Assembly: GCA_051294905.1 (NCBI GenBank) | Contig: CM119372.1 | Location: forward strand, 15,192,001-15,256,000 | Source of the DNA: Botryllus schlosseri | Taxonomy: Eukaryota | Direction: 5' to 3' | DNA length: 64,000 nt | Shown: one piece after another, positions 1,067-50,833 of the stretch | How the letters are laid out: every line of letters begins with the position of its first letter | How positions within the stretch are numbered: the stretch's first letter is position 1 | Position numbers and translations under genes: made by a program | The notes under the pieces: model-generated | What the model was told of the DNA's origin: nothing | Seen by the model: the letters and a program-made list of their open reading frames with translations, nothing else | Databases searched by the model: none

Positions 1067-3088
1067 AAAAATAGTGCCGTATGATAAATCTGACCAGAGA
1101 TCATGATAACGTGTCACGATGGCATTCGGATGCATGAGATACCGACTATTATGGATCACTATCTTGAATAATCGCCTACTAATTTAAGCAATGTTAAGGT
1201 TCTCAAATTGACAACTACAACCGATCATGACGTTGAACTGATGAATAGAGGTGACATCATCTACGTAAGGGGCAAAGGTATTGTGGGGCACTTTGACGGG
1301 AAGGTGAGATAAAAAGTGGAGTTTTGTTGATATTTTTCCAACTATACATGTTTGTTTGCCACGTGTAACATACATATATTAACGGGCTTATCGAGTTGTG
1401 CAGAGGTCGGCAACCCGGGGCTCGCGACCGCATGTTCAGGCTATATGTCATGCATCTGCTGCGTCTCTTCGTGCGTTTGAACTTTAAAGTAAATTAATGC
1501 TATATTGGAGAAATAATTTAAATGAAATAACATTTCTCTTTAGATATTTTGCTTTTCCAATGAATGTTTTCGTTTATTTCATGTCGCGGAAAGAAAGACT
1601 AATTAGCATAGTATCAGTCGCAATTTATGCAAGACATTTCATTTCCAAATTGATTGCGACGTTTCATGAGACATCAGTCCAATACGACATAATTTTGGGA
1701 ATCATCAGGAAACGATTCAATCGCATCAGCACCGAAGTGTTATAGGTTTATCTATAGGCTCCACCTCGCCACCTCATCCGCGTAAGCGGTGTCTTACAAA
1801 AAGCCTAGAAGTGGGTTGTGCTATAAGTCGGCAGTTACGGAATAAAAACGAAGAATATCGGCCTGGTGTAAATGACCATTAGTCGACAAACACCATGAAT
1901 ACCACAAAAACAAAAATCGCATCAGCGCTGGCCACCACCGAAGAGATGTCAATTGAAGTGCGCAACAACCGCATGCAGCTGTGTGTCATAAACTTGTGTT
2001 AAGATTTGCATATCTTACATTATTGCTTTGCTCATGATACAATGTAGGCTATATGTCTGAGTTAGCGTTGACAACATCAGTCACACTGTTGGCAATAAGC
2101 ATTTGGGGATGGAACAGAACGTTCGGTTCTCAATTGGTTTTGTGTGCACGAAAAGAGGTTCAAATGGGTTTTTGTATGCTGAAGGATGTCGACCCATGGT
2201 GTAGCGCAATAAATTGACATAATGAAAGTGGCCGAAATACCAGGCAGGCATTAACGGTCAACTTAATTTTGTTTGCACATGTGGACCATCACAAACAGAT
2301 ACATTGTGGAAAATTGACTAATAAACCTATACAACTCATTTATGCAACTTTTCTAAATCGAGGCAGTATCGCAAATGAAAAAATAACAGGATAAGACAGA
2401 TGAATCACTATGTTACCTCACTGATCGCGATATTCACAATTTCATCTTCCAAAAGAACAAAGAGCTCTATATGGCGAGTTGGCGACTATGAGTCGTTTTC
2501 GAGACGCGAAATTACGGCTGATATGCTGTTTACCGAGCGTTCCATAACAAGTTCTTACGATACCTGTGTAAAGCGGGTGTAAATATCTGTCTGCGGGTAG
2601 ATCAGATGATGTTGGCGCGGTTTTTCTATCGCCATGGAGTGATTGGTTTTACTGGAGTTTGTAAAAGAATACCTGGATAAGCATTACACCCGCAATAAAA
2701 TAATAATACTTATTGATTACGTCTCGATGTAAAAAAACGTACGCCTTACCGACACCAAGTCCCGCCAGCGGGTGTAATTACACCTGATGAATAGTTACAA
2801 TGTACCTTGCGTCATCAAATGATAGTAGCCTGTCAACCTTCAGCACTTTGACACTTCCCAACCGGCTATAGGCGTAAGATAGGCGGAGCTTAAGAATAGA
2901 CCGCGTACGTGCCGTAAATTATAAAAGCATTATCGTCACAGCAAACAGTATCAACTGAGTGAGATGGACGCAATTTCCGTGTCTCGTCGAAGAACTCAGT
3001 CACCACCATGGTCACGGCCATGGTATTTTGATCTGAGAAAGATATTAATAAATGATCATGATGAACTTAACAATATCTATTGTGTCAG

Positions 3089-5801
3089 GAAAAGAAGCTG
3101 GTTTTCGAAGCGTTTAACAACATCGACCGAATAAGCATCGCAATGTTTTTCAAAACCTTTTTCGAGCCTGCATCTACTACAATCAATGTCCCGCCAGAGG
3201 AGTTAAATCAGATAATGAGAGTGACGAATATCTACAAGGTGATATATCGTAACTTTTCGTTGAAATTATTATTTGACAGTGATTTTTATTATCTTCATGT
3301 TTGAATACAACTGACCGCGGCTCATGAATGTCGTCAATGAATCACTGACTTCTCTTGCATCAAAGTATCCGCATGATCAAATAAGATAGAATCGTAATAT
3401 TGTCGCAGTGGGGTGTGGCCAACATTGCTATGACGGGAGATGCTGAAACTTACGTTTCTTAATTGCGACACTGCATGTTCATATCATTGGAATATTTCTT
3501 CGATGCGATCAAGAGGTTCCAAACTAGAGGCCAATTAGATTCAAGCGATCACCTTTGTACAACAAACACTGTGATCATTACCGCAAAAATGCAATTCTAA
3601 TGAGCTCCAATGTAGTTCTTACCATTTTAAAGATCAGTTATATGACCAACCTTTTCGGGAAATGAGCTGTTTGATAGTACGTGGTATCCAATTCCCACTA
3701 AAATTATCAAATTATTATCATTCATTCATTTCAAAATCCCAGTTCGCATTAGGTGTAGAGACATGAAATGGGGAGCAAATGATATGGCACTCATTAGAAG
3801 TGATCAGAGTAATCATTGTTTGTGCTGAAGTAGGCCCACCAGTAGATGATATGGCAATAATGTGTATTACGGTAGAAATATGAGTAGCTATTTCCAAAGT
3901 ATGCCAAACTTACTCCAAGAATAAGTAGGATTCGTCAGGTATGCGAAGTACTTAAGTCAGGGATATCTAGATATCCCTGACTTAAGTAAGTAGTTCGACT
4001 ATAAGTAGATTGGAGCGAGGCATCGCAAACGGTGGCCCGACATATGAGCATGCGACACAATGGAAAACGACAGTTCAGCATGGAACACATCAGCATGCGT
4101 CACTTCAGCATGTGACTGTATAACCCAAAAACTTACCCTAACCCGAAACATAGCCTAACCTAACCTAACCTAGCCTAACCTAACCTAAACCCTAACCCTA
4201 ACCCAACCATAAACATAACCTAACCTACCCCTAACCCGTAATTTAACCCACATGCTCATGTGTCGCATGCCAAATTGTCGCATGCCGAAGCGTCGCATGC
4301 TGTAATGTCGCATGCTCATATGTCCACGGACCATCGCAAACGTCAGTTTGTCAATCGTTGATGCCTGTTCCAAAATTGAAATATGCATCTTTGTGATCAA
4401 AGTAAATGACTCATAACAATGAAAGGTACGATTTTCGATGTTGTAATCTGTTAGCGACATAAGTCAAATTTAATGTTAATTTCACTCTTGGAAGTGGTTA
4501 AAATGGCTGATAGTCTACTTTGACAAAATCAAAGGTAGAGAGTATTCTGGCGTCTAGAACATTTGATTAACTGTACAAGAGAAGTAATCTAAAATCACGG
4601 CTACTTGGGTAAGAAGTGAAGGGCACGAACCGCACTTGAGTAATTGAGTATAGTCCGTCACAGTCCACCCCTGAAGTCGCGCTTAATTTGATATTCTAAC
4701 ATCGTAAGCTCAATCTTGTATGCAATATCGGGTTGAGAAAAATCTTCGATGGTATGAGAATTCAGAATATATTTTTTCGTATCGTTATGCCATTTTCATA
4801 AATTTTGATACAATTCGTATTTTATTCATGACTTAAGTGGATTCATGAGTTGGAAATGAAACGATCATTAGGCAGAATAGACCTAAGTCATATACAGTAA
4901 AATCGAGAACATATAATGAAGTCATCAGTGTTCAACGACTGCGGCAGCTCTACTCATTATTGTCACATAACTTTCAGGTGGAAAATATGTTCCTCGATTG
5001 CGAGGAAGACAAACATGTCGATTGGTCGTTGATTGAAGAGTGTGCCAAGATACTTCAGGTCAAATTCGAGAGTTAATTTCAATTCCCGTATATGAAATCA
5101 GTTTATTCCCAGGTTGAACATCTGAATATCACTGCGAACGGGAAAACGTCTATTGAAGATCATAATCGTATTTTGAAACGTGCCGGAGAAATATGTCGTT
5201 TTGGTGCTCACGTGAATATCCAATGGGTGTTCTACATTAGAAATGCGGATAGCGTTCAAAGTACTCTTCAAGCTTGTCAACAAAAAAATGTAACGAACAC
5301 CAATCTCTAATCACTAAATGCTAAAAGATATGTCCGACCACAGATGGAATGCATCAGATGCGTGATTGATTGGCTATATCGTCCTTCATTTGATGACATC
5401 ATTGCTCTTGTTGAGCACTCGAAGAAGCTCATGCTGATATACTGGCGCGAGACTGACATGTTGGACGAACGGGAATTTGCCAAGATTTCGAAGATTTCAA
5501 GCGTTCAACTTTTAGACGGTTTGTAATTGTATCAGTTCGGAGCAGAATTTTGGAATAAAGTTTACAATATTGTTTTGATATGGAATATTTATTGTGTCAA
5601 AAACTCATGTCTATATTTATGCATTATAAAGGCAGCTATAATATTATAATATTGTTCAGACTTATAATGCTCCTGGAATATTAATTATTCCCCTTTTCAG
5701 ATCACTATCACTGCGGTTGGTGGCAACTTGGCATTCAACTACAACAAGATTGGAGTTATGTACAACAAAAGCTCAGTATGCACGATTCATTCTATGTGTA
5801 A
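3089..5801 (+). CDS. 3' exons of an NLR-like gene paralogue (exons 3089-3238, 4978-5058, 5113-5289, 5344-5518, 5701-5801 incl. TAA); upstream exons not identified
   Basis: All exons bounded by AG/GT with compatible phases (0,0,0,1). Peptides (VENMFLDCEEDKHVDWSLIEECAKILQ; MECIRCVIDWLYRPSFDDII; HCGWWQL) align exon by exon to 55348-56523, with identical 81-nt and 177-nt exon lengths. Confidence 0.85.
3949..3988. repeat. Perfect 40-bp palindrome (22-bp CAGGGATATCTAGATATCCCTG core flanked by ACTTAAGT on both sides)
   Basis: TACTTAAGTCAGGGATATCT|AGATATCCCTGACTTAAGTA is its own reverse complement. Confidence 0.9.
4031..4332. mobile_element. Foldback MITE, Mutator-like (9-bp TSD), with telomere-like CCTAAC core
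   Basis: Imperfect TIRs GGT..GACATATGAGCATGCGACA; TSD ATCGCAAAC at 4022-4030 and 4333-4341; internal CCTAAC/CCCTAA repeats at about 4120-4250. Confidence 0.75.
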
Positions 5802-42888: not shown

Positions 42889-43665
42889 GTGAGTTACTGG
42901 TATTTTACTTCTAACACATATTATTCTACTGATAAACCAAGATTTTTCAACTCGTTCATTATTTTGCATTTCCCTGCATTCGGAGATGAAAAAAAAAACA
43001 ATATCTTGGTGCCCTATACTTTACAAGAAGTCTAACCGATATTGTACAAATTTATTGGTGCGTAGCCTAAGTAAAATACCCGTCGTCTTTTTCTGCAATG
43101 CGATTGTACTTTGGACCGTTCTTATTGCTCTTGCGCGAAAGCCAGTGATCCCCAAACTGTGACCCGGGGCGCATTACGTCGCAGTGGAATCAAAGTGACT
43201 CAAGTCCATTTTACACATTTTAAGAAAATTGACTTTACTTTCAGCCACATATTGGTCCTGATTAGCTTTGAATTAATGAAATAGGCATAACCATAACCAA
43301 GAAATGACCGAAAAAATTGAAAATGTTTCGAAAACTTTTTTTTTTAAGTTTTGAAAATGAAGCTTCAAAATTTGAAAACTGGACATAAGTCACTTTGATT
43401 CCACTTATTGAGTGTACCGCCGCAGATTCTCATGTGACCATTACAATGGAACCAATCATGCCGATCAATTGCCCGTGAGTTGGGTAATGTCACGTCATAA
43501 TTGAACTGTTATGTGTCGAAGAAAGTCCCATTTCACGTTTGTAGTGAATCAAATGTAAATCATTAACAAATAATTAACCCGCAAAACGTGAGCACACTGC
43601 CTGGATATAGTTTAACGGTGTAGTGGTAGCCATGCCGAGCAGACTGTACCTGTTGATAATTGTAG

Positions 43666-45147
43666 GTGAGAAGAGGAAGAAAGCTCTGATAAAGACTGTG
43701 AACGACAACACCATGAAAATGACAATTCATGACCTCGGTGACGTCAGAAATAAATGGCTCAAGGAGTCTGATGTCGAAATTCATCCGCAGATGAGGATAT
43801 TTTACGAGAGCAGCTCACGCAACGGTCGTTACGGGAGAGAAGAGGATGCAGGTCAATCGATCACAATAGATAAGATCATGGCATCAACATCGATCACGGA
43901 AGAATCAGGTCGGACTGCGGCAGTTGGTGTCACTTTCGTCGCCGCATCAGGCGGTGCGGGGAAAACATATCTCCTTGGCAAATTAGCTCAAAAAGCCCTC
44001 CATGTATCGCCTGAGCGAGGAGATATGAGATCAAGAATGATACATTATGTCCAATTAATTGATATCCATGAACAAGAATTCATTAAACCGTCAAGATTCG
44101 TATTTGGTGATCTATGCAGAGAAGAAGATGACCAGGATCGAGCTTTCAGGTATCTAGTTGAACATCAAACTGAAGCCATTTTAATCTTCGACGGTTTCGA
44201 ACCATCTAAATTTCTATTCGGCGGCTATCAGAAAATGCCAGTAGAGCAAACGAAGCAGCCAATTTCGAATGTCGAAGGTCTCGATCAAGCAGGAAGATAT
44301 TTTCGAAAAATAAAAGAGTACGAAGAGGCAAGCACCTCAACGATCATGTACAACATATTGGCTCGGAATATTCTTCGCCATGTTAAAATCTTCGTAGCTG
44401 CTCGTGAATTTAATATCTTGGAGTTACCGACGACAACTCGGCCCGAAATGATTCTTACACTAAAGGGTTTCAGTGTGCAAGATTCGAAAAGACTTTTCAT
44501 TTCCTTAATCGACAAAAACGGCGAAAAAGTATGGAAAAAAATGGAAGCAGCGTCTCCACGCTTAATCGAGCTGCTATCGATACCTGCTTACCTGATTTTA
44601 ACAGCATTCGTAATGGGAAGTGATCCAAGCAGACCGCCACCTACTGCACTCACAGAATTATACGATCGGATCTTATTATGCCTTGCTAGCGTGGGAAACA
44701 TCCAAAATGGGCATCAGGTTTCTGACATAACTTACGCATCGGAAATGATGGCTTCCTCTTCAACCGTGGTGAGCCTACAAAAAGCGGAAAATGGAATTTT
44801 TGGGGTTATCAAAAAATTAAAAGCCATGGCATTCAGGGGATATTCGGAAGGAAAGACTGTGTTCCACGAAATAGACTTGATGCGGTTTAATTTGTCAGCA
44901 GGGGAAGTTCAATATTTCATGACAAAATCTACGTACTACAATCCTTACAGCAGCCGCCATGTGGCCAATTTCATTTTCCCTTATATACGTATCCAGGAAT
45001 TTCTCGCAGCAAGTTATGTTGCAGAGATGGAGTGGCAGAAATTTACGCGCTTCAATGACGAGTATCTTCACACCCGACGGTGGTCGGAAGTTCGAAGACT
45101 TGTCTCGGGAATCGTCTTCGCTGAATCAACGAATAAACTTCACAAAG
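43666..45147 (+). CDS. NACHT-domain exon of an NLR-like protein
   Basis: Within the 512-aa ORF: Walker A ASGGAGKT, Walker B ILIFDG, sensor-1-like KIFVAARE, LTLKGFS, LLSIPAY, LTELY, LKAMAFRG, IQEFLAASYV, RWSEVRRLVSG. Acceptor TTGTAG ends 43665; donor AAG|GTGAGG at 45147/45148. Confidence 0.92.
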
Positions 45148-45367
45148 GTGAGGTTTTATGATTAAGTGAATCAGCCATTTTCGAAAAATATTACATCTTT
45201 CTTCGATTCCTCGGCCGCTCTAGTATCAAAACCAGGGTTGTAATGACTTGAGTCCCGATTTTCTGATGACTCGAATTGACTCGGGTGGTTTTCTCAAAAT
45301 ACAAAAATGACTCGACTCGAGTCAATCTGTGTATTGACTCGACTTGGACTCGAGTCATTGCGCATGA

Positions 45368-45764
45368 TGTAACCGCAGAAATTTCAGGCCTAATCTGGGT
45401 ACACGACGTGGCACTGTCAGCTGTCTTCGCTCTGGTTGAAACTTCAACACGCGTCTTCTTGGGTGAAGTACGGTTTTTAATGATCCAAATTCCCAGCGAT
45501 TATACAACTGACCAAATAATTTATGACACAATCCAAATTCTTAATACAAACAGATAATACGAATTAAAATAACATGAAAGCCAAATAGAACCCTAAATAC
45601 GATAATACGCATCCTAAACTAAACGATTTGAGCCAAACAATAATATGCGACCAATACCATGCAGTGCGCCACGTGAAGTGATAGATTCGAGGCGCCAAAA
45701 CCATCATTCATGCGTCATAGAAAGAATCATTGGTCCATTGCGAAGGTGGAATTCTGCGGCAACA
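45368..45764 (-). repeat. 3' LTR
   Basis: Matches 49677-50073 except G45410 vs A49719; preceded on the sense strand by the PPT (45765-45775). Confidence 0.97.
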
Positions 45765-46065
45765 CCCTCACCCCCAAAAATGGGAAATTTATTACAATAA
45801 ATTTATACACATTTTTTCACAGGTGAAACAACAACTTCCCAAAACCATGCGAGAAAACAAATACAACAAAGCAACGAATCAATTAAATTGTATTGAGACA
45901 AAGTGTCACTCATGGCATTGTGACGCAATCAATAACGAAAACACATACTGTAGTAAACAACGAGTGCCGTAGTAAACAATGGGTTCCACAGCAGTAAATA
46001 ACCATTAACCAAACACCGAGTATTGAAGTTATTGAACGAGTGACGTTCTAGTGAATGGATTGATA

Positions 46066-49000
46066 TCATGTTGACGAGCTCTGAATAAGCACCAACTTAG
46101 TAATGGGCCTCTCAAGCTCAGAATTTTTTGTTTTGATACGAACCGACCTTACCAGGTCGTCTTTGCCAGGAAATAGTTGTGTGACACGGCCCAGAAGCCA
46201 TGCATTTCGGGGCAGGTTATCGTCCATGATTAGGACAATATCATCGATTTTTAGGTTACATTTACCATCAATCCATTTGGGCCGTTTTGCTGGAAGATTT
46301 GACATTTGCTGCGACTCTGGCTGTCGCTGCCGTTTACGACATATCACGCAATCATATATTATTTTTCTCAATTTGGGCTGAGGGCGCACAATCCAATATT
46401 TTTTACGAACCATTCCCAAGACATGCTCACGACCCGAATGTCCTGATAATCTGTGATGCCATTCAAAAATGGCGGAAGCAATCCTGCTATCTCTTGGCAC
46501 TACAATTTGGTGTTGATTTTCATAAGCAATGGGGGCTTCCATTATTCTGCCACCAACCCGCAGTAACTCATTTTCTATAAAAGGCTTCAACCTGTACAAA
46601 GTACTTGCAGGTCTGAGATTTTGACCATTTGCAATCGCATGCATTTCTGCAGCATAAAATTTTGCTTGCTCATGTTTGATAATTTCTCTTTCCGAATGCA
46701 ACACTTCATCTGTTGTTAATAGCCCTGCAGGGAGCGATTCATTACCGCCAGATGTTCCTCTAACCTTAGAGAGCAACCTATCTTTGTATCGTAACACCCA
46801 AGCAATCACCTTCTTGAGTTTGAACCAATTACAATGTTTTTTTATTGCCTCATCCATGAATTCAATACCAGGTGTAGGAACATCGCTCACTACAGTTGCA
46901 AGACATGTCTTTTTAGTTTTTACTTTATCAATTACGTCTGAACACATTTCACAGACACTGTCTGTGCTGACCTTTGTAAAGTTGCAGCTGACGGGCAATT
47001 TTCCATTGCCCTTTATTTCACTTCTCTCACACGCCACCGCCCAACCAATCAATGTGCGAACGGCATAGAAATCTGCCGGCCCATCAACCACTTCTCTTGG
47101 TCGATGAATACTTCTATTATCAAAGCCGATTAACAATTCAACATCACAGTCCACATCAGGAATTTCAATTCCATCGAACTCAGGAAAATCTTGGATATCT
47201 TCCTGGAGTGGCATTTCATATTTGCCCAAAGGTATCTCTTCGGTAGATACCAGCGTTGAAAGGGACACCCAATCATTACCATTATATGCCGATACTTCTA
47301 CATTGTCAATCAAAGTTTCTGTTTTGTGGGAACCAACGCCATTGAGAGTTTTTACAGCCACGCTGACATCCCTACCTTTAGCACTAATTCTTTCCAGCAA
47401 TGAATGTGTAATGAATGAATTTCTACTTGCTCCATCAAGCAACGCTTTGGTGGTAAAAATGTTTCCACCACTGCCGACACGCACTTTGACCGGCAAACCA
47501 GGCAATAATGCACCTGCTTCCTTTTGAATGCTACTAGCAAAGGTACTCGTCGTTTTGTCAGATTCCGAGTTTTGTTCCGATTTAATCAATTCAATTGGCT
47601 TATGACTTTGGGAAGGATTGTTATCAGGTGGATGAAGTAATGTAGTGTGCATACCGAAACAATTTGCCTGAGAACACGGCTTTTTACGATAACATTCTTT
47701 ACTGAAATGCCCTGCTTGAAGACACGAAAAACACAGCTTGTTTTGCTGCACAAAATCATGCCTTTGTTCAAAACTCATTGCTCGAAAGATATTGCATTGG
47801 TTGAGAAAATGAGTTTGCTTACATTGCGGACATGATGCAGTTGAACTCTCCATCTGTGTAACAAAACTGGATTTGCTTCCTTTAGGATTAACAGACCTTT
47901 CGTTATTCAAGGACCAATTTATTTTAGGCTTTGTTTCCAATTCTCGAGATTTCTTTCGAATGTAATTTGACAAGTCAAGCATGGTCAATTTTTCCCTTTT
48001 TACATTCACAATATTATCCACAATGGATCTCCATCCACTTCTCCATCCTTGCGGCAATCTATCCTCAACTTTGTCAATTACCATAATGTTGTCAATTTCA
48101 TGCAAACTATTTGTGCCCATTAAAGTTTCTCTGCATGAAACCAGTTTCGCCCAAAACATTGCCAAACCATCCCTATCGTTTTCAGAAAAACTAGGACCTC
48201 CAAGTATGGACTCCAGGCAACAGCGACTGATTTGATGTTCTTGCCCATAATTTTCATTTAATATTTTCCATGCCTTATCAAAGCATGAGTGAGAATCAGC
48301 ATGCAAACAACCTTTGATCAATACATGCGGGACACCCTTTGTATACTTCATTAGATATTGAAGCCTATGTTGTTGTGTTAACGCATATGGCTCTACTAAA
48401 GAATTGAAAGCCATTTTAAAATCATAAAAATCACTGGCGTTTCCTGTAAAGATGGGAGGTTCCGTGAGGGGTAATAAAGAAGGTAGGGGAACTTGGGCAT
48501 ACATAACCTTGGGTTCCGAATTACTGATATTGTTTTTAGTAGCAAGGAAACAAGCTTCAGCATTGGCTGGTGTCGAAATAAGAGCAGCGGGTTTAGGTCC
48601 CCGTTCATATTTTGGTAACTTAGTAGGTTCACTACGGCCCTGCAAACAAGGGCTATCAAAATCAATCAGATCTAGCACCGAGTTAACAGTATTTGAACCC
48701 AAAGGTTGCGAACTACCTGGAATGGATGGACAATTAACCTGAGGAACAAATTCGATGGCAGTTTCCTGCTTGACTACAGGACTCAGTCTAGTGCTAAAAA
48801 TTGATTGTCGGGTTTCTAAGGACTGAGGAACAAAAGGAATTTGAACGTCGGTGCGATTCATACCTGAAGCATTAACAGTAGGAAGCTCAAAACCAAGCAC
48901 CTTTCTCTCTGCGCGAGTTTCCTCAAGCGCAGATGCGATTTCGAATTGGTCCCTCTGATGTCTCATACTGAGTTCATCGATCTCTCGTTGTCTAATGCGT

Positions 49001-49611
49001 CTCAAGGTTTCAACCTCGGACTTGTTTTCCCGTTCGAGTTCTTCTGCTTCGAGCTTTTGCTGTCGAGCAATTTCTTCCCGTCTTGATTTAATCTTTTCAA
49101 GCATTTCTTCTTCTTCACGATGATGCCGCAACATGAGTTGCTGTTTTTCCAGAATATGACGTTGTGAGGATGAAGCAGATCTGGCCTCCAGAACCGCTTC
49201 TTGTTGCATCAATGTCATACCTACATCTGAGGTAGACATTGTTGAGCCTGAGCCATGTGATTGAGTAACATGACTTTTTGATTTAATACTCGATCGACCG
49301 CCAACCTTTGCCTTTGATCTGGTAGTCATCATATGTAGATTGTCTTTGGTTAGCAATGCACTTTTGGTGCTTCTTTTCACATGACGCGAAACCATGCCAG
49401 CAGACACGCAACTCGAACTTGTTCTAGTCTTTGTTTTGTTCAAGTTGTTTTTTGGCTGTGCTGCAGCTCCTATCGCGCCATAAGCTTTGGCATGCGTTGC
49501 TAATTGTTGAATCGGGCCTTCCATATTATCTTCGGATAACACCAGGGCGTCAATTTCACGTTGATTAGATGCTAGTTGATTGGAGACCGCAACATCTTTC
49601 AACAGCTCCAT
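46066..49611 (-). CDS. BEL/Pao Gag-protease polyprotein fused to integrase Zn-finger and C-terminal domain; lacks RT, RNase H and integrase core
   Basis: Coiled coil, DUF1759-like PPIFTGN..F..F, three knuckles (CPQCKQTHFLNQC, CFSCLQAGHFSKEC, CSQANCFGMHTTLLH), aspartic protease ALLDGAS, LRVGGRI, H..SGH..C..C, DUF5641-like W.LGRV..LFPGKDDLVRSV. No YVDD or DDE region seen. Confidence 0.93.
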   Translation of the reverse strand: MELLKDVAVSNQLASNQREIDALVLSEDNMEGPIQQLATHAKAYGAIGAAAQPKNNLNKTKTRTSSSCVSAGMVSRHVKRSTKSALLTKDNLHMMTTRSKAKVGGRSSIKSKSHVTQSHGSGSTMSTSDVGMTLMQQEAVLEARSASSSQRHILEKQQLMLRHHREEEEMLEKIKSRREEIARQQKLEAEELERENKSEVETLRRIRQREIDELSMRHQRDQFEIASALEETRAERKVLGFELPTVNASGMNRTDVQIPFVPQSLETRQSIFSTRLSPVVKQETAIEFVPQVNCPSIPGSSQPLGSNTVNSVLDLIDFDSPCLQGRSEPTKLPKYERGPKPAALISTPANAEACFLATKNNISNSEPKVMYAQVPLPSLLPLTEPPIFTGNASDFYDFKMAFNSLVEPYALTQQHRLQYLMKYTKGVPHVLIKGCLHADSHSCFDKAWKILNENYGQEHQISRCCLESILGGPSFSENDRDGLAMFWAKLVSCRETLMGTNSLHEIDNIMVIDKVEDRLPQGWRSGWRSIVDNIVNVKREKLTMLDLSNYIRKKSRELETKPKINWSLNNERSVNPKGSKSSFVTQMESSTASCPQCKQTHFLNQCNIFRAMSFEQRHDFVQQNKLCFSCLQAGHFSKECYRKKPCSQANCFGMHTTLLHPPDNNPSQSHKPIELIKSEQNSESDKTTSTFASSIQKEAGALLPGLPVKVRVGSGGNIFTTKALLDGASRNSFITHSLLERISAKGRDVSVAVKTLNGVGSHKTETLIDNVEVSAYNGNDWVSLSTLVSTEEIPLGKYEMPLQEDIQDFPEFDGIEIPDVDCDVELLIGFDNRSIHRPREVVDGPADFYAVRTLIGWAVACERSEIKGNGKLPVSCNFTKVSTDSVCEMCSDVIDKVKTKKTCLATVVSDVPTPGIEFMDEAIKKHCNWFKLKKVIAWVLRYKDRLLSKVRGTSGGNESLPAGLLTTDEVLHSEREIIKHEQAKFYAAEMHAIANGQNLRPASTLYRLKPFIENELLRVGGRIMEAPIAYENQHQIVVPRDSRIASAIFEWHHRLSGHSGREHVLGMVRKKYWIVRPQPKLRKIIYDCVICRKRQRQPESQQMSNLPAKRPKWIDGKCNLKIDDIVLIMDDNLPRNAWLLGRVTQLFPGKDDLVRSVRIKTKNSELERPITKLVLIQSSST

Positions 49612-49676
49612 TATGAAATATCCTTTGTCGTTTAGTGCAACGTTTCGTTTGATGCGATGTGATCATTAAAAACTTG

Positions 49677-50073
49677 TGTAACCGCAGAAATTTCAGGCCT
49701 AATCTGGGTACACGACGTAGCACTGTCAGCTGTCTTCGCTCTGGTTGAAACTTCAACACGCGTCTTCTTGGGTGAAGTACGGTTTTTAATGATCCAAATT
49801 CCCAGCGATTATACAACTGACCAAATAATTTATGACACAATCCAAATTCTTAATACAAACAGATAATACGAATTAAAATAACATGAAAGCCAAATAGAAC
49901 CCTAAATACGATAATACGCATCCTAAACTAAACGATTTGAGCCAAACAATAATATGCGACCAATACCATGCAGTGCGCCACGTGAAGTGATAGATTCGAG
50001 GCGCCAAAACCATCATTCATGCGTCATAGAAAGAATCATTGGTCCATTGCGAAGGTGGAATTCTGCGGCAACA
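49677..50073 (-). repeat. 5' LTR
   Basis: Upstream of the ORF on the minus strand; TG...CA ends; sense strand has TATAAT (49813-49808) and Inr-like TCATT (49792-49788). Confidence 0.97.
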
Positions 50074-50833
50074 CATGACTCGAACCAAGTCATATGACTC
50101 GAGATTCAGACGGCCAAGACCAACATTTCATTGCATTTTCTAAGATTGGTAAAGTAACCGCACTGTTGGGACCTCGTATATCGGTACTGGTACTTGAAAA
50201 TACAACCAGAAACTGCTAAAAGTGGGGAAAATTAGTATAATATGAATGCGAACCATTCGATATCACAAAACAGAGTTATAAAAAGTGGGTTTACCTAGAC
50301 TCCAACTGGAAACTGAGCAGTCAACAAAATGACTTGGACTCGGACTCGGGTCATAATGCCATGACTCGGACTTGACCCGCTGCTCACTGAGTTAAACTCG
50401 GACTTGACTCGGTGGTGAATTGAAAATGACTCGACCTGACTAGACTCAAAACTATAAAAGTGAGATTTACTTGTGACGCGGGGCCTTATGACTTCGTTAC
50501 AACCTGATCAAAACATTTCTGTGCCAAGAGATGCTAAGAGTAGTAGTTTAGTATACTTAAGTTGATGTATCGTTTTTTTGACAGAAAACGATAAGTTTTC
50601 AAATATTTCATTGGAAATATAGGCTATATATGTAAATTGACTAATGAAAGGGACGTAAATCTATTCAAATACCTCTTTCTACTTGGTACAAAATGAAGTG
50701 AAAAATGAGCATCTCGACTTCACGAACTTTTGAATTCGAAGTGTGCATATATGCGCGTCTAACATACAGCCATGCACTGTGAGCATAGAACCACTTTTCA
50801 ATATGTACTAGATACAGTAGATAGCCTCTAGCA

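Follow-up and report, generated by a model that had tools for sequence, protein, structure and literature searches.

Results

Anatomy and classification of the element

The window analyzed here, a stretch of 64,000 nucleotides (nt) of the Botryllus schlosseri genome (contig CM119372.1, positions 15,192,001 to 15,256,000), carries on its minus strand a 4706 base pair (bp) BEL/Pao long terminal repeat (LTR) element, an internally deleted copy. The leader behind its 5' LTR is complementary to a segment of the LTR itself, and comparison of copies and of a related family suggests that this element probably primes reverse transcription with its own RNA. Positions below are those of the window, and the features of the element are as follows.

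5' LTR, 49677..50073, minus strand: 397 nt, TGTTGCC...GGTTACA (TGT...ACA ends)
Sequence at the primer-binding position, 49661..49673, minus strand: GTTTTTAATGATC, 3 nt past the 5' LTR
LTR segment and candidate self-primer, 49782..49794, minus strand: GATCATTAAAAAC, holding ATTAAA at 49790-49785
Single open frame, 46066..49662, minus strand: 1198 amino acids (aa), gag ATG at 49611
Polypurine tract, 45765..45775, minus strand: GGGGGTGAGGG, abutting the 3' LTR on its upstream side
3' LTR, 45368..45764, minus strand: 397 nt
Target-site duplication TCATG, 50074..50078 (upstream copy) and 45363-45367 (downstream copy), minus strand

The two LTRs of this copy differ at 1 of 397 bases (position 49719). 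That the element belongs to BEL/Pao had been proposed in an earlier reading of the DNA from its letters alone (the sequence-only reading), and the Pfam domains of the 1198-aa frame agree: the gag domain DUF1759 (2.6e-09), an Integrase_H2C2 zinc finger and the integrase C-terminal domain DUF5641 (3.8e-19) were detected. We take DUF1759 together with DUF5641 to be markers of BEL/Pao. This assignment is supported by their co-occurrence with Peptidase_A17 (Pao peptidase) in long frames, as DUF1759 frames of 1900-2150 aa in the 495-Mb genome also carry this domain (for example C9:2920836 with C9:2923575 and C5:25108564 with C5:25105936). By score, the DUF1759 matches of the genome fall into at least 12 groups. 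The nearest intact gag relative, 34% identical (C10:14654953-14656188), likewise lies in a 2092-aa frame with Peptidase_A17. Neither a Ty3/gypsy-type pol or gag nor the chromodomain integrase of the Tf1/sushi clade was encountered, the domains being DUF1759, Integrase_H2C2 and DUF5641. Protease, reverse transcriptase, RNase H and integrase core gave no Pfam match in the 1198-aa frame, and their Pao-type versions were also absent from the 8 frames of a 6.1-kb copy (L095). From its coding content the window copy is read as an internally deleted, non-autonomous BEL/Pao derivative, and the loss of domains is no argument against BEL/Pao ancestry.

The leader is complementary to a segment of the LTR

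The sense strand of the 5' LTR ends in ...GCGGTTACA, with 49677 as its last base. It is followed by the spacer CAA (49676-49674) and by the 13-mer GTTTTTAATGATC (49673-49661). Reverse-complemented, this 13-mer is identical to GATCATTAAAAAC, which lies at 49794-49782 in the 5' LTR and again at 45485-45473 in the 3' LTR. Both observations with which the sequence-only reading had started, CAA in place of a TGG-type primer-binding site (PBS) behind the LTR and a 13-nt PBS exactly complementary to the element's own LTR, were thus found again in the sequence.

The sequence directly after 49677 is CAAGTTTTTAATG, not TGG, and no primer site for a tRNA 3' end adjoins the LTR, the post-LTR sequence CAAGTTTTTAATGATC being free of TGG. 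The stretch from the LTR end to the gag ATG (49611) has a single TGG, which overlaps this ATG and was rejected as a primer site because it lies 63 nt downstream of the LTR end. Since reverse transcription sets the 3' border of the LTR at the 3' end of the primer, the primer must anneal right after 49677, and since the sequence there is not TGG, the priming molecule cannot be the CCA end of a tRNA.

Given the base composition of the LTR, an exact complement to the 13-mer is expected anywhere in it with a frequency of 6.4e-6. When the 40-nt leader was shuffled, a 13-nt run arose in 1 of 1000 shuffles and a run of at least 12 nt in 2 of 1000.

Copies of the family carry the primer site through recent transposition

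A search of the genome with LTR and leader yielded 41 matches, 13 of which carry a 5' LTR plus leader. Among the 13 LTR pairs tried, one had a truncated 5' LTR and the other 12 were examined for target duplications. Eleven of these are flanked by perfect 5 bp duplications, all different, and the remaining one by a duplication matching at 4 of 5 positions. The internal deletion of the window copy is common to five copies (frames of 1198-1199 aa). Because the duplications are perfect and different and the deletion is shared, the cut-down form has been copied repeatedly with this primer site. The element has been mobile recently, and its primer site works.

The 13-mer core GTTTTTAATG is constant in all 13 copies read. 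Variation is found at 49663 (position 11 of the 13-mer in the leader), which is A in 7, G in 4 and T in 2 copies, the alleles tracking subfamilies. The third pair of the duplex was reconstructed as an ancestral G.U, which is also seen in the copies C1 and C10 of a sister family described below; it became A-U in the window subfamily by a change in the leader and G-C in copies L008 and L009 by a change in the LTR.

Position 49663 is also the most variable site of a 235-nt stretch that is otherwise near-invariant across the 13 copies, and a T>C variant at this position is present in contigs of runs X1 and X2. As a speculation, 49663, where a primer of about 10 nt would end, may mark errors made at the template end of plus-strand strong-stop synthesis.

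The primer site co-varies with the LTR in a sister family

A sister family, its gag 47-52% identical, was found through matches to the gag N-terminus (43-52% amino-acid identity). Of four loci fetched, three (C1, C10 and C14) contain an LTR-leader junction and were compared; L100 lacks the junction and was left out. Two further relatives, C10:14652418-14657100 (the nearest intact one) and C1:25428275-25430400 (68% identical, degenerate), stood outside this comparison. The paired sequences of the two families are:

Window family: LTR segment GATCATT-AAAAAC; spacer and leader CAA-GTTTT-TAATGATC
Sister family: LTR segment TATCATCAAAAAAC (final C is T in C10); spacer and leader TAA-GTTTTTTGATGGTC (GGAC in C14)

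All three junction copies of the sister family have the LTR segment TATCATCAAAAAAC(C/T) and the leader TAA-GTTTTTTGATGG(T/A)C, forming duplexes of 13, 13 and 11 pairs. Pattern searches recovered 27 sister LTR segments and no junction copies beyond these 3. Relative to the window family, a T>C substitution in the LTR (CATT>CATC) is accompanied by A>G in the leader (AATG>GATG), and a 1-nt insertion in the LTR (A5>A6) by one in the leader (T5>T6), whereas no unmatched change separates the two families within the 10-11-nt core. Compensatory change of PBS and LTR segment in relatives, which the sequence-only reading had named as a sign to look for, was therefore present as one matched substitution and one matched 1-nt indel in 3 of 3 junction copies. 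The hexamer inside the sister segment is ATCAAA, which is not a canonical poly(A) signal, and the PBS changed along with it.

The primer sites of the two families differ and each fits its own LTR, which argues against one shared host primer, and the matched changes make chance unlikely. Neither coincidence nor one host RNA would readily account for two such sites. In retroviruses it is established that the primer is copied into the new PBS during plus-strand strong-stop synthesis, and this is applied here by inference; through selection and this copying, self-priming predicts co-variation of the kind observed. Relatives outside this genome were searched for with a protein scan of metagenomes, in which 0 of 19 pattern matches were confirmed, and with a DNA pattern scan, which gave 0 matches.

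The edges of the primer site showed several rearrangements. In the sister leaders L097, L098 and L099, 2-3 tandem primer-site-like repeats AAGTTTT(TT)GATGG... directly follow the first, and in copy L021 of the window family 6 nt (TCACAC) are duplicated where the primer site has its 3' edge. The 3' border of the primer site thus seems prone to rearrangement. An old LTR fragment (L068, G000:C1:31355937-31356211; 82% identical) spans LTR bases 1-293 and stops one base past the 13-mer, where unrelated sequence begins; this end point could be a coincidence or an insertion break.

RNA ends in the LTR and predicted folding

Reads of the single-cell run X21 were mapped, and 193 were placed on the element. 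They define two RNA ends, listed here together with a promoter-like motif.

Poly(A) addition site and R/U5 border, 49768..49770, minus strand: C-A-A, exact base ambiguous
Discrete RNA 5' end and candidate LTR transcription start, 49988, minus strand: A of TCACTTC
TATAAT, 49808..49813, minus strand: 23 nt upstream of the A of TCATT

In 5 reads a poly(A) tail is joined at 49768, 17 nt past ATTAAA (49790-49785), and ATTAAA inside the 13-mer segment is therefore a working poly(A) signal. Ten reads cross the LTR start into the polypurine tract and, because of this continuation, represent 3' LTR transcripts. In 6 reads the sequence of the template-switch oligo plus one extra G is joined at 49988; in the literature, this oligo sequence stands alongside the term 'template switch'. 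At least some LTR transcripts start at this candidate site, and the template-switch reads and the poly(A) reads, taken together, show that short RNAs from 49988 to the poly(A) site exist. With a start at 49988 and poly(A) addition at 49768-49770, the LTR divides into a U3 of 85 nt, an R of 221 nt and a U5 of 91 nt. Judged by consensus sequences, TCACTTC at 49988 is initiator-like and GGTCG at +28 to +32 resembles a downstream promoter element. The motifs TGACGCA and CACGTG near 49988 are shared with sister copy C1.

For an RNA starting near the 13-mer, the duplex of primer and PBS is predicted to close the R-U5 region (z = -3.35; 0 of 200 shuffles as good), and the same closure is predicted in 3 of 3 sister copies. 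In the predicted R-U5 fold, poly(A) cleavage falls within the loop of a small hairpin that is conserved. A trans-spliced leader as source of the 5' end was considered and rejected, as no AG acceptor precedes the 13-mer in either family.

Other RNA datasets were uninformative on the ends of the element. Of 28 reads from the bulk RNA run X23, 27 fit only partly, and the Logan contigs of X1 and X2 break at variant bubbles at about 49782-49905, which are not RNA ends; these contigs were left unused for the start site. In X23, groups of 4 reads show foreign sequence at each end of a 36-nt core (49775-49810) that holds the 13-mer, and 5 of 12 reads have A>G at 49796. The foreign context was absent from the assembly, where all 39 pattern matches to the core (at most 3 mismatches) are LTRs of the family; the flanks may come from another strain or relative.

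Discussion

A model for priming by the element's own RNA

Priming of minus-strand DNA synthesis by the element's own RNA instead of a tRNA, in some form, is the best explanation of the sequence data, and we consider it probable. Tf1 uses a primer of 11 nt, and RNase H cuts after this primer. By analogy, we infer the cut, the act of priming and the RNA that supplies the primer as follows. The LTR segment (GAU)CAUUAAAAAC (49794/49791-49782) would anneal to the leader at 49673-49661, 3 nt past the 5' LTR. A cut on the 3' side of C49782, possibly made by the RNase H of the element as in Tf1, would leave a 3'-OH, which would be extended through CAA, U5 and what remains of R before the poly(A) site, 12-14 nt (49781-49769). 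With this remnant of R, the first strand transfer would be directed to the 3' R. In the 5' copy, the duplex may in addition conceal the poly(A) signal that is in use.

Two forms of self-priming can be distinguished. The primer could be the first 10-13 nt or so of a transcript that starts at 49790-49794, as in Tf1. By analogy with that element, a 5'-terminal primer would be the best fit to the mechanism, as plus-strand synthesis would then halt where the primer site ends; we regard this form as doubtful. Tentatively, the primer may instead lie inside the transcript from 49988 or be provided in trans by the short LTR RNAs observed in the reads. The former option agrees with the RNA data but calls for either a second cut or a 3' flap that is tolerated; in the trans variant, the primer would be supplied by abundant short capped, polyadenylated LTR RNAs. 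A more far-reaching version, rather unlikely as a whole, is that a tunicate BEL/Pao lineage primes with an R segment that doubles as its poly(A) signal, about 195 nt into the transcript, either cut on both sides or supplied in trans, and that the same duplex silences the 5' poly(A) site. If true, such an internal or trans-acting primer, unlike the 5'-terminal one of Tf1, would represent a novel kind of self-priming.

Several observations weigh against self-priming or against one of its forms. The sole discrete RNA 5' end is 49988, about 195 nt upstream of the 13-mer, and none was seen at 49790-49794; X21 is 3'-anchored and cannot show the 27-nt LTR RNAs expected from a start at 49790-49794. 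TATAAT does lie about 23 nt upstream of TCATT, as had been proposed in support of such a start, but 3 of 3 sister copies have TTTTAT instead. The 389-nt RNA from 49988 lacks the duplex in its predicted minimum-energy fold (z = 0.58), and a primer carrying 194 nt of 5' tail would allow plus-strand strong-stop synthesis to overrun the PBS, so that a second cut would be needed. The R left for strand transfer would be only 12-14 nt; R lengths of 10-21 bp are cited for other elements (PMC3601003). By energy the pairing is less striking, because the duplex is A/U-rich: it amounts to -18.4 kcal/mol compared with -13.1 +/- 2.3 for shuffled leaders, and 2.7% of 300 shuffles equal it. In the old copies L011 and L012 the third pair is a U.U mismatch, while L008, L009 and the sister copies have lost the first pair. 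The co-variation comes from only one cross-family comparison, in which one of the two matched changes is a slippage-prone change of homopolymer length. In the more distant BEL/Pao family L096, the first 40 nt contain no pairing run of at least 8 nt and 14% of shuffles reach as good a fold, so the pairing signature is not general in this genome. Among the copies sharing this LTR none has an intact pol, and their open frames reach at most 1436 aa. Finally, the segment is also a working poly(A) signal, and selection for hiding it could alone keep the pairing.

This last point leads to the first alternative, in which the leader 13-mer, present behind the 5' LTR alone, only masks AUUAAA in the 5' R of transcripts from 49988 and so keeps them from being polyadenylated prematurely, while another primer would do the priming. 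Poly(A) tails indeed join 17 nt after the hexamer, the site is used 221 nt from the 49988 start and would need to be bypassed in the 5' LTR, and the duplex spans the entire hexamer. However, masking would work from anywhere in the leader, whereas the complement lies exactly at the primer position, 3 nt past the LTR, in both families. No other primer site is present, and the sister family has kept the pairing although its hexamer AUCAAA is non-canonical. Moreover, one duplex can serve masking and priming together. Masking as the only function is thus judged unlikely. The sequence-only reading had allowed that the LTR motif might be no more than an ATTAAA poly(A) signal matching by chance; the motif proved to be a poly(A) signal, but the match is not one of chance, as the sister PBS changed together with its hexamer.

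The second alternative is priming by some host RNA that is not the 3' end of a mature tRNA, such as an internal tRNA fragment or a mitochondrial or other small RNA, with the LTR match being incidental. Priming by half-tRNAs is known in Ty1/copia lineages (PMC6317226). The 13-mer has 49 exact matches in the genome compared with 21 for the reversed control. Twelve of these lie outside family copies, one of them in the old LTR fragment L068 described above; all 12 were checked, and none overlaps a tRNA called by ARAGORN. Rfam gave no match in 45200-50300. The longest complementarity between the leader and a tRNA was 7 nt, at or below the usual maximum of shuffled leaders, in a narrow and very incomplete set (63 Rfam candidates scored, reduced to 36 distinct sequences, 31 of them tRNA-Lys(UUU)-like). 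A good host tRNA match to the PBS, which would have spoken for a host primer, was thus not found among the tRNA genes of the assembly as far as the exact 13-mer is concerned, while the scan for complementarity covered the 36 tRNA sequences. The PBS of the two families also differ and each fits its own LTR (expected primer 3' ends ...CAUUAAAAAC and ...CAUCAAAAAAC), and a host RNA primer therefore appears improbable. A functionless match of two A/T-rich stretches, to which the 2.7% of shuffled leaders binding the LTR equally well by energy would lend some room, is the least probable explanation, considering the 13-nt run in 1 of 1000 shuffles, the exact primer position and the matched changes in the sister family.

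Comparison with known systems

Self-primed reverse transcription is described for Tf1 and Tf2 of Schizosaccharomyces pombe and Tj1 of S. japonicus, members of the Ty3/gypsy Tf1/sushi group (PMC4600332). Like these elements, the window element has no tRNA primer site, its post-LTR sequence pairs with about 10-13 nt of its own LTR, and its R-U5 domain is predicted to fold into a structure closed by the primer duplex. In contrast to them it belongs to BEL/Pao and is not a chromovirus. The primer of Tf1 is the 5' end of the mRNA, whereas the one 5' end seen for the window element lies about 195 nt upstream of the segment. Also unlike in Tf1, the candidate primer segment overlaps the poly(A) signal in use, and no more than 12-14 nt of R would be left.

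Among plant elements, self-primers were predicted by Neumann et al. (2019) for Tcn1 (Ty3/gypsy) and TAR (Ty1/copia; Houba, Osr-1), and this study (PMC6317226) gives as criterion a complementarity of at least 10 bp starting 0-5 bp after the 5' LTR. The pairing reported here, 13 bp starting at +3, falls within this definition, which is likewise drawn from sequence. The window element differs from plant Tcn1 and TAR by its animal host, its membership in a third LTR superfamily, the co-variation between two families and the mapped poly(A) site.

With canonical Belpaoviridae the window element shares the DUF1759 gag, the DUF5641 integrase C-terminus, TG...CA LTRs, a polypurine tract and a single gag-pol frame. 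For this family, the 2021 profile of the International Committee on Taxonomy of Viruses (ICTV; PMC8742986) describes priming from the 3' end of tRNA-Arg or tRNA-Gly at a site of 18 nt; unlike in these canonical members, no such site was found in the window element. Self-priming is described for Tf1, Tf2, Tj1, Maggy, Skippy, Cft-1, Boty, Grasshopper, Afut1, the sushi group, plant Tcn1 and copia TAR (PMC6934838, PMC6317226, PMC4600332, PMC5445492, PMC5443660, PMC3601003). For BEL/Pao, no description was found in the portions of the literature covered by the search, which did not extend to supplements, and a survey of BEL/Pao (PMC3118150) mentions neither PBS nor tRNA nor primer. The sequence-only reading had named no such case either, and the literature search is in line with it, the ICTV profile giving tRNA priming.

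A pairing that would hide a poly(A) signal resembles the situation in human immunodeficiency virus 1 (HIV-1) in that the signal in R could be masked in the 5' copy only. The 5' poly(A) hairpin of HIV-1 hides the 5' AAUAAA in RNA structure. In the window element, by contrast, the masking partner would be the PBS itself, and this would apply only if transcripts start upstream of the signal.

To our knowledge, experimental proof of self-primed reverse transcription exists only for fission-yeast Ty3/gypsy elements. If BEL/Pao self-priming is true, the mechanism arose or was kept in all three LTR superfamilies. This would bear on the old idea that hairpin or self priming preceded tRNA priming (PMC3601003). 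In practice, an LTR annotation pipeline that insists on a tRNA-type primer site will overlook families of this kind or score them wrongly. The overlap of primer and poly(A) signal, in turn, offers a simple and testable link between the choice of the 3' end and replication.

Additional observations

The more distant BEL/Pao family L096 (G000:C9:2918836-2920835) has a 2111-aa frame and a 419-nt LTR (264-682). In most copies the LTR match ends in ...GCCGTAA, not CA, with no adjoining TGG, and the leader contains three GTGAACAA repeats. A dense array of tRNA genes was located at G000:C3:34486000-34509000. Most ARAGORN calls in the tRNA loci L031-L060, which include this array, are tRNA-Lys(UUU), with 31 distinct sequence variants.

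The insertion site of the window element (50074-50100 and 45250-45367) is a repeat rich in CGAGTCA. The contig depth of run X2 is about 2900-4100 at the insertion flank compared with about 40-340 in the element, and because of this jump the flank is a high-copy repeat. On the plus strand, a 516-aa open frame (43611-45161) contains a NACHT domain (Pfam, 1.8e-13). It stops about 200 nt short of the 3' LTR and is probably part of an NLR-type immune gene.
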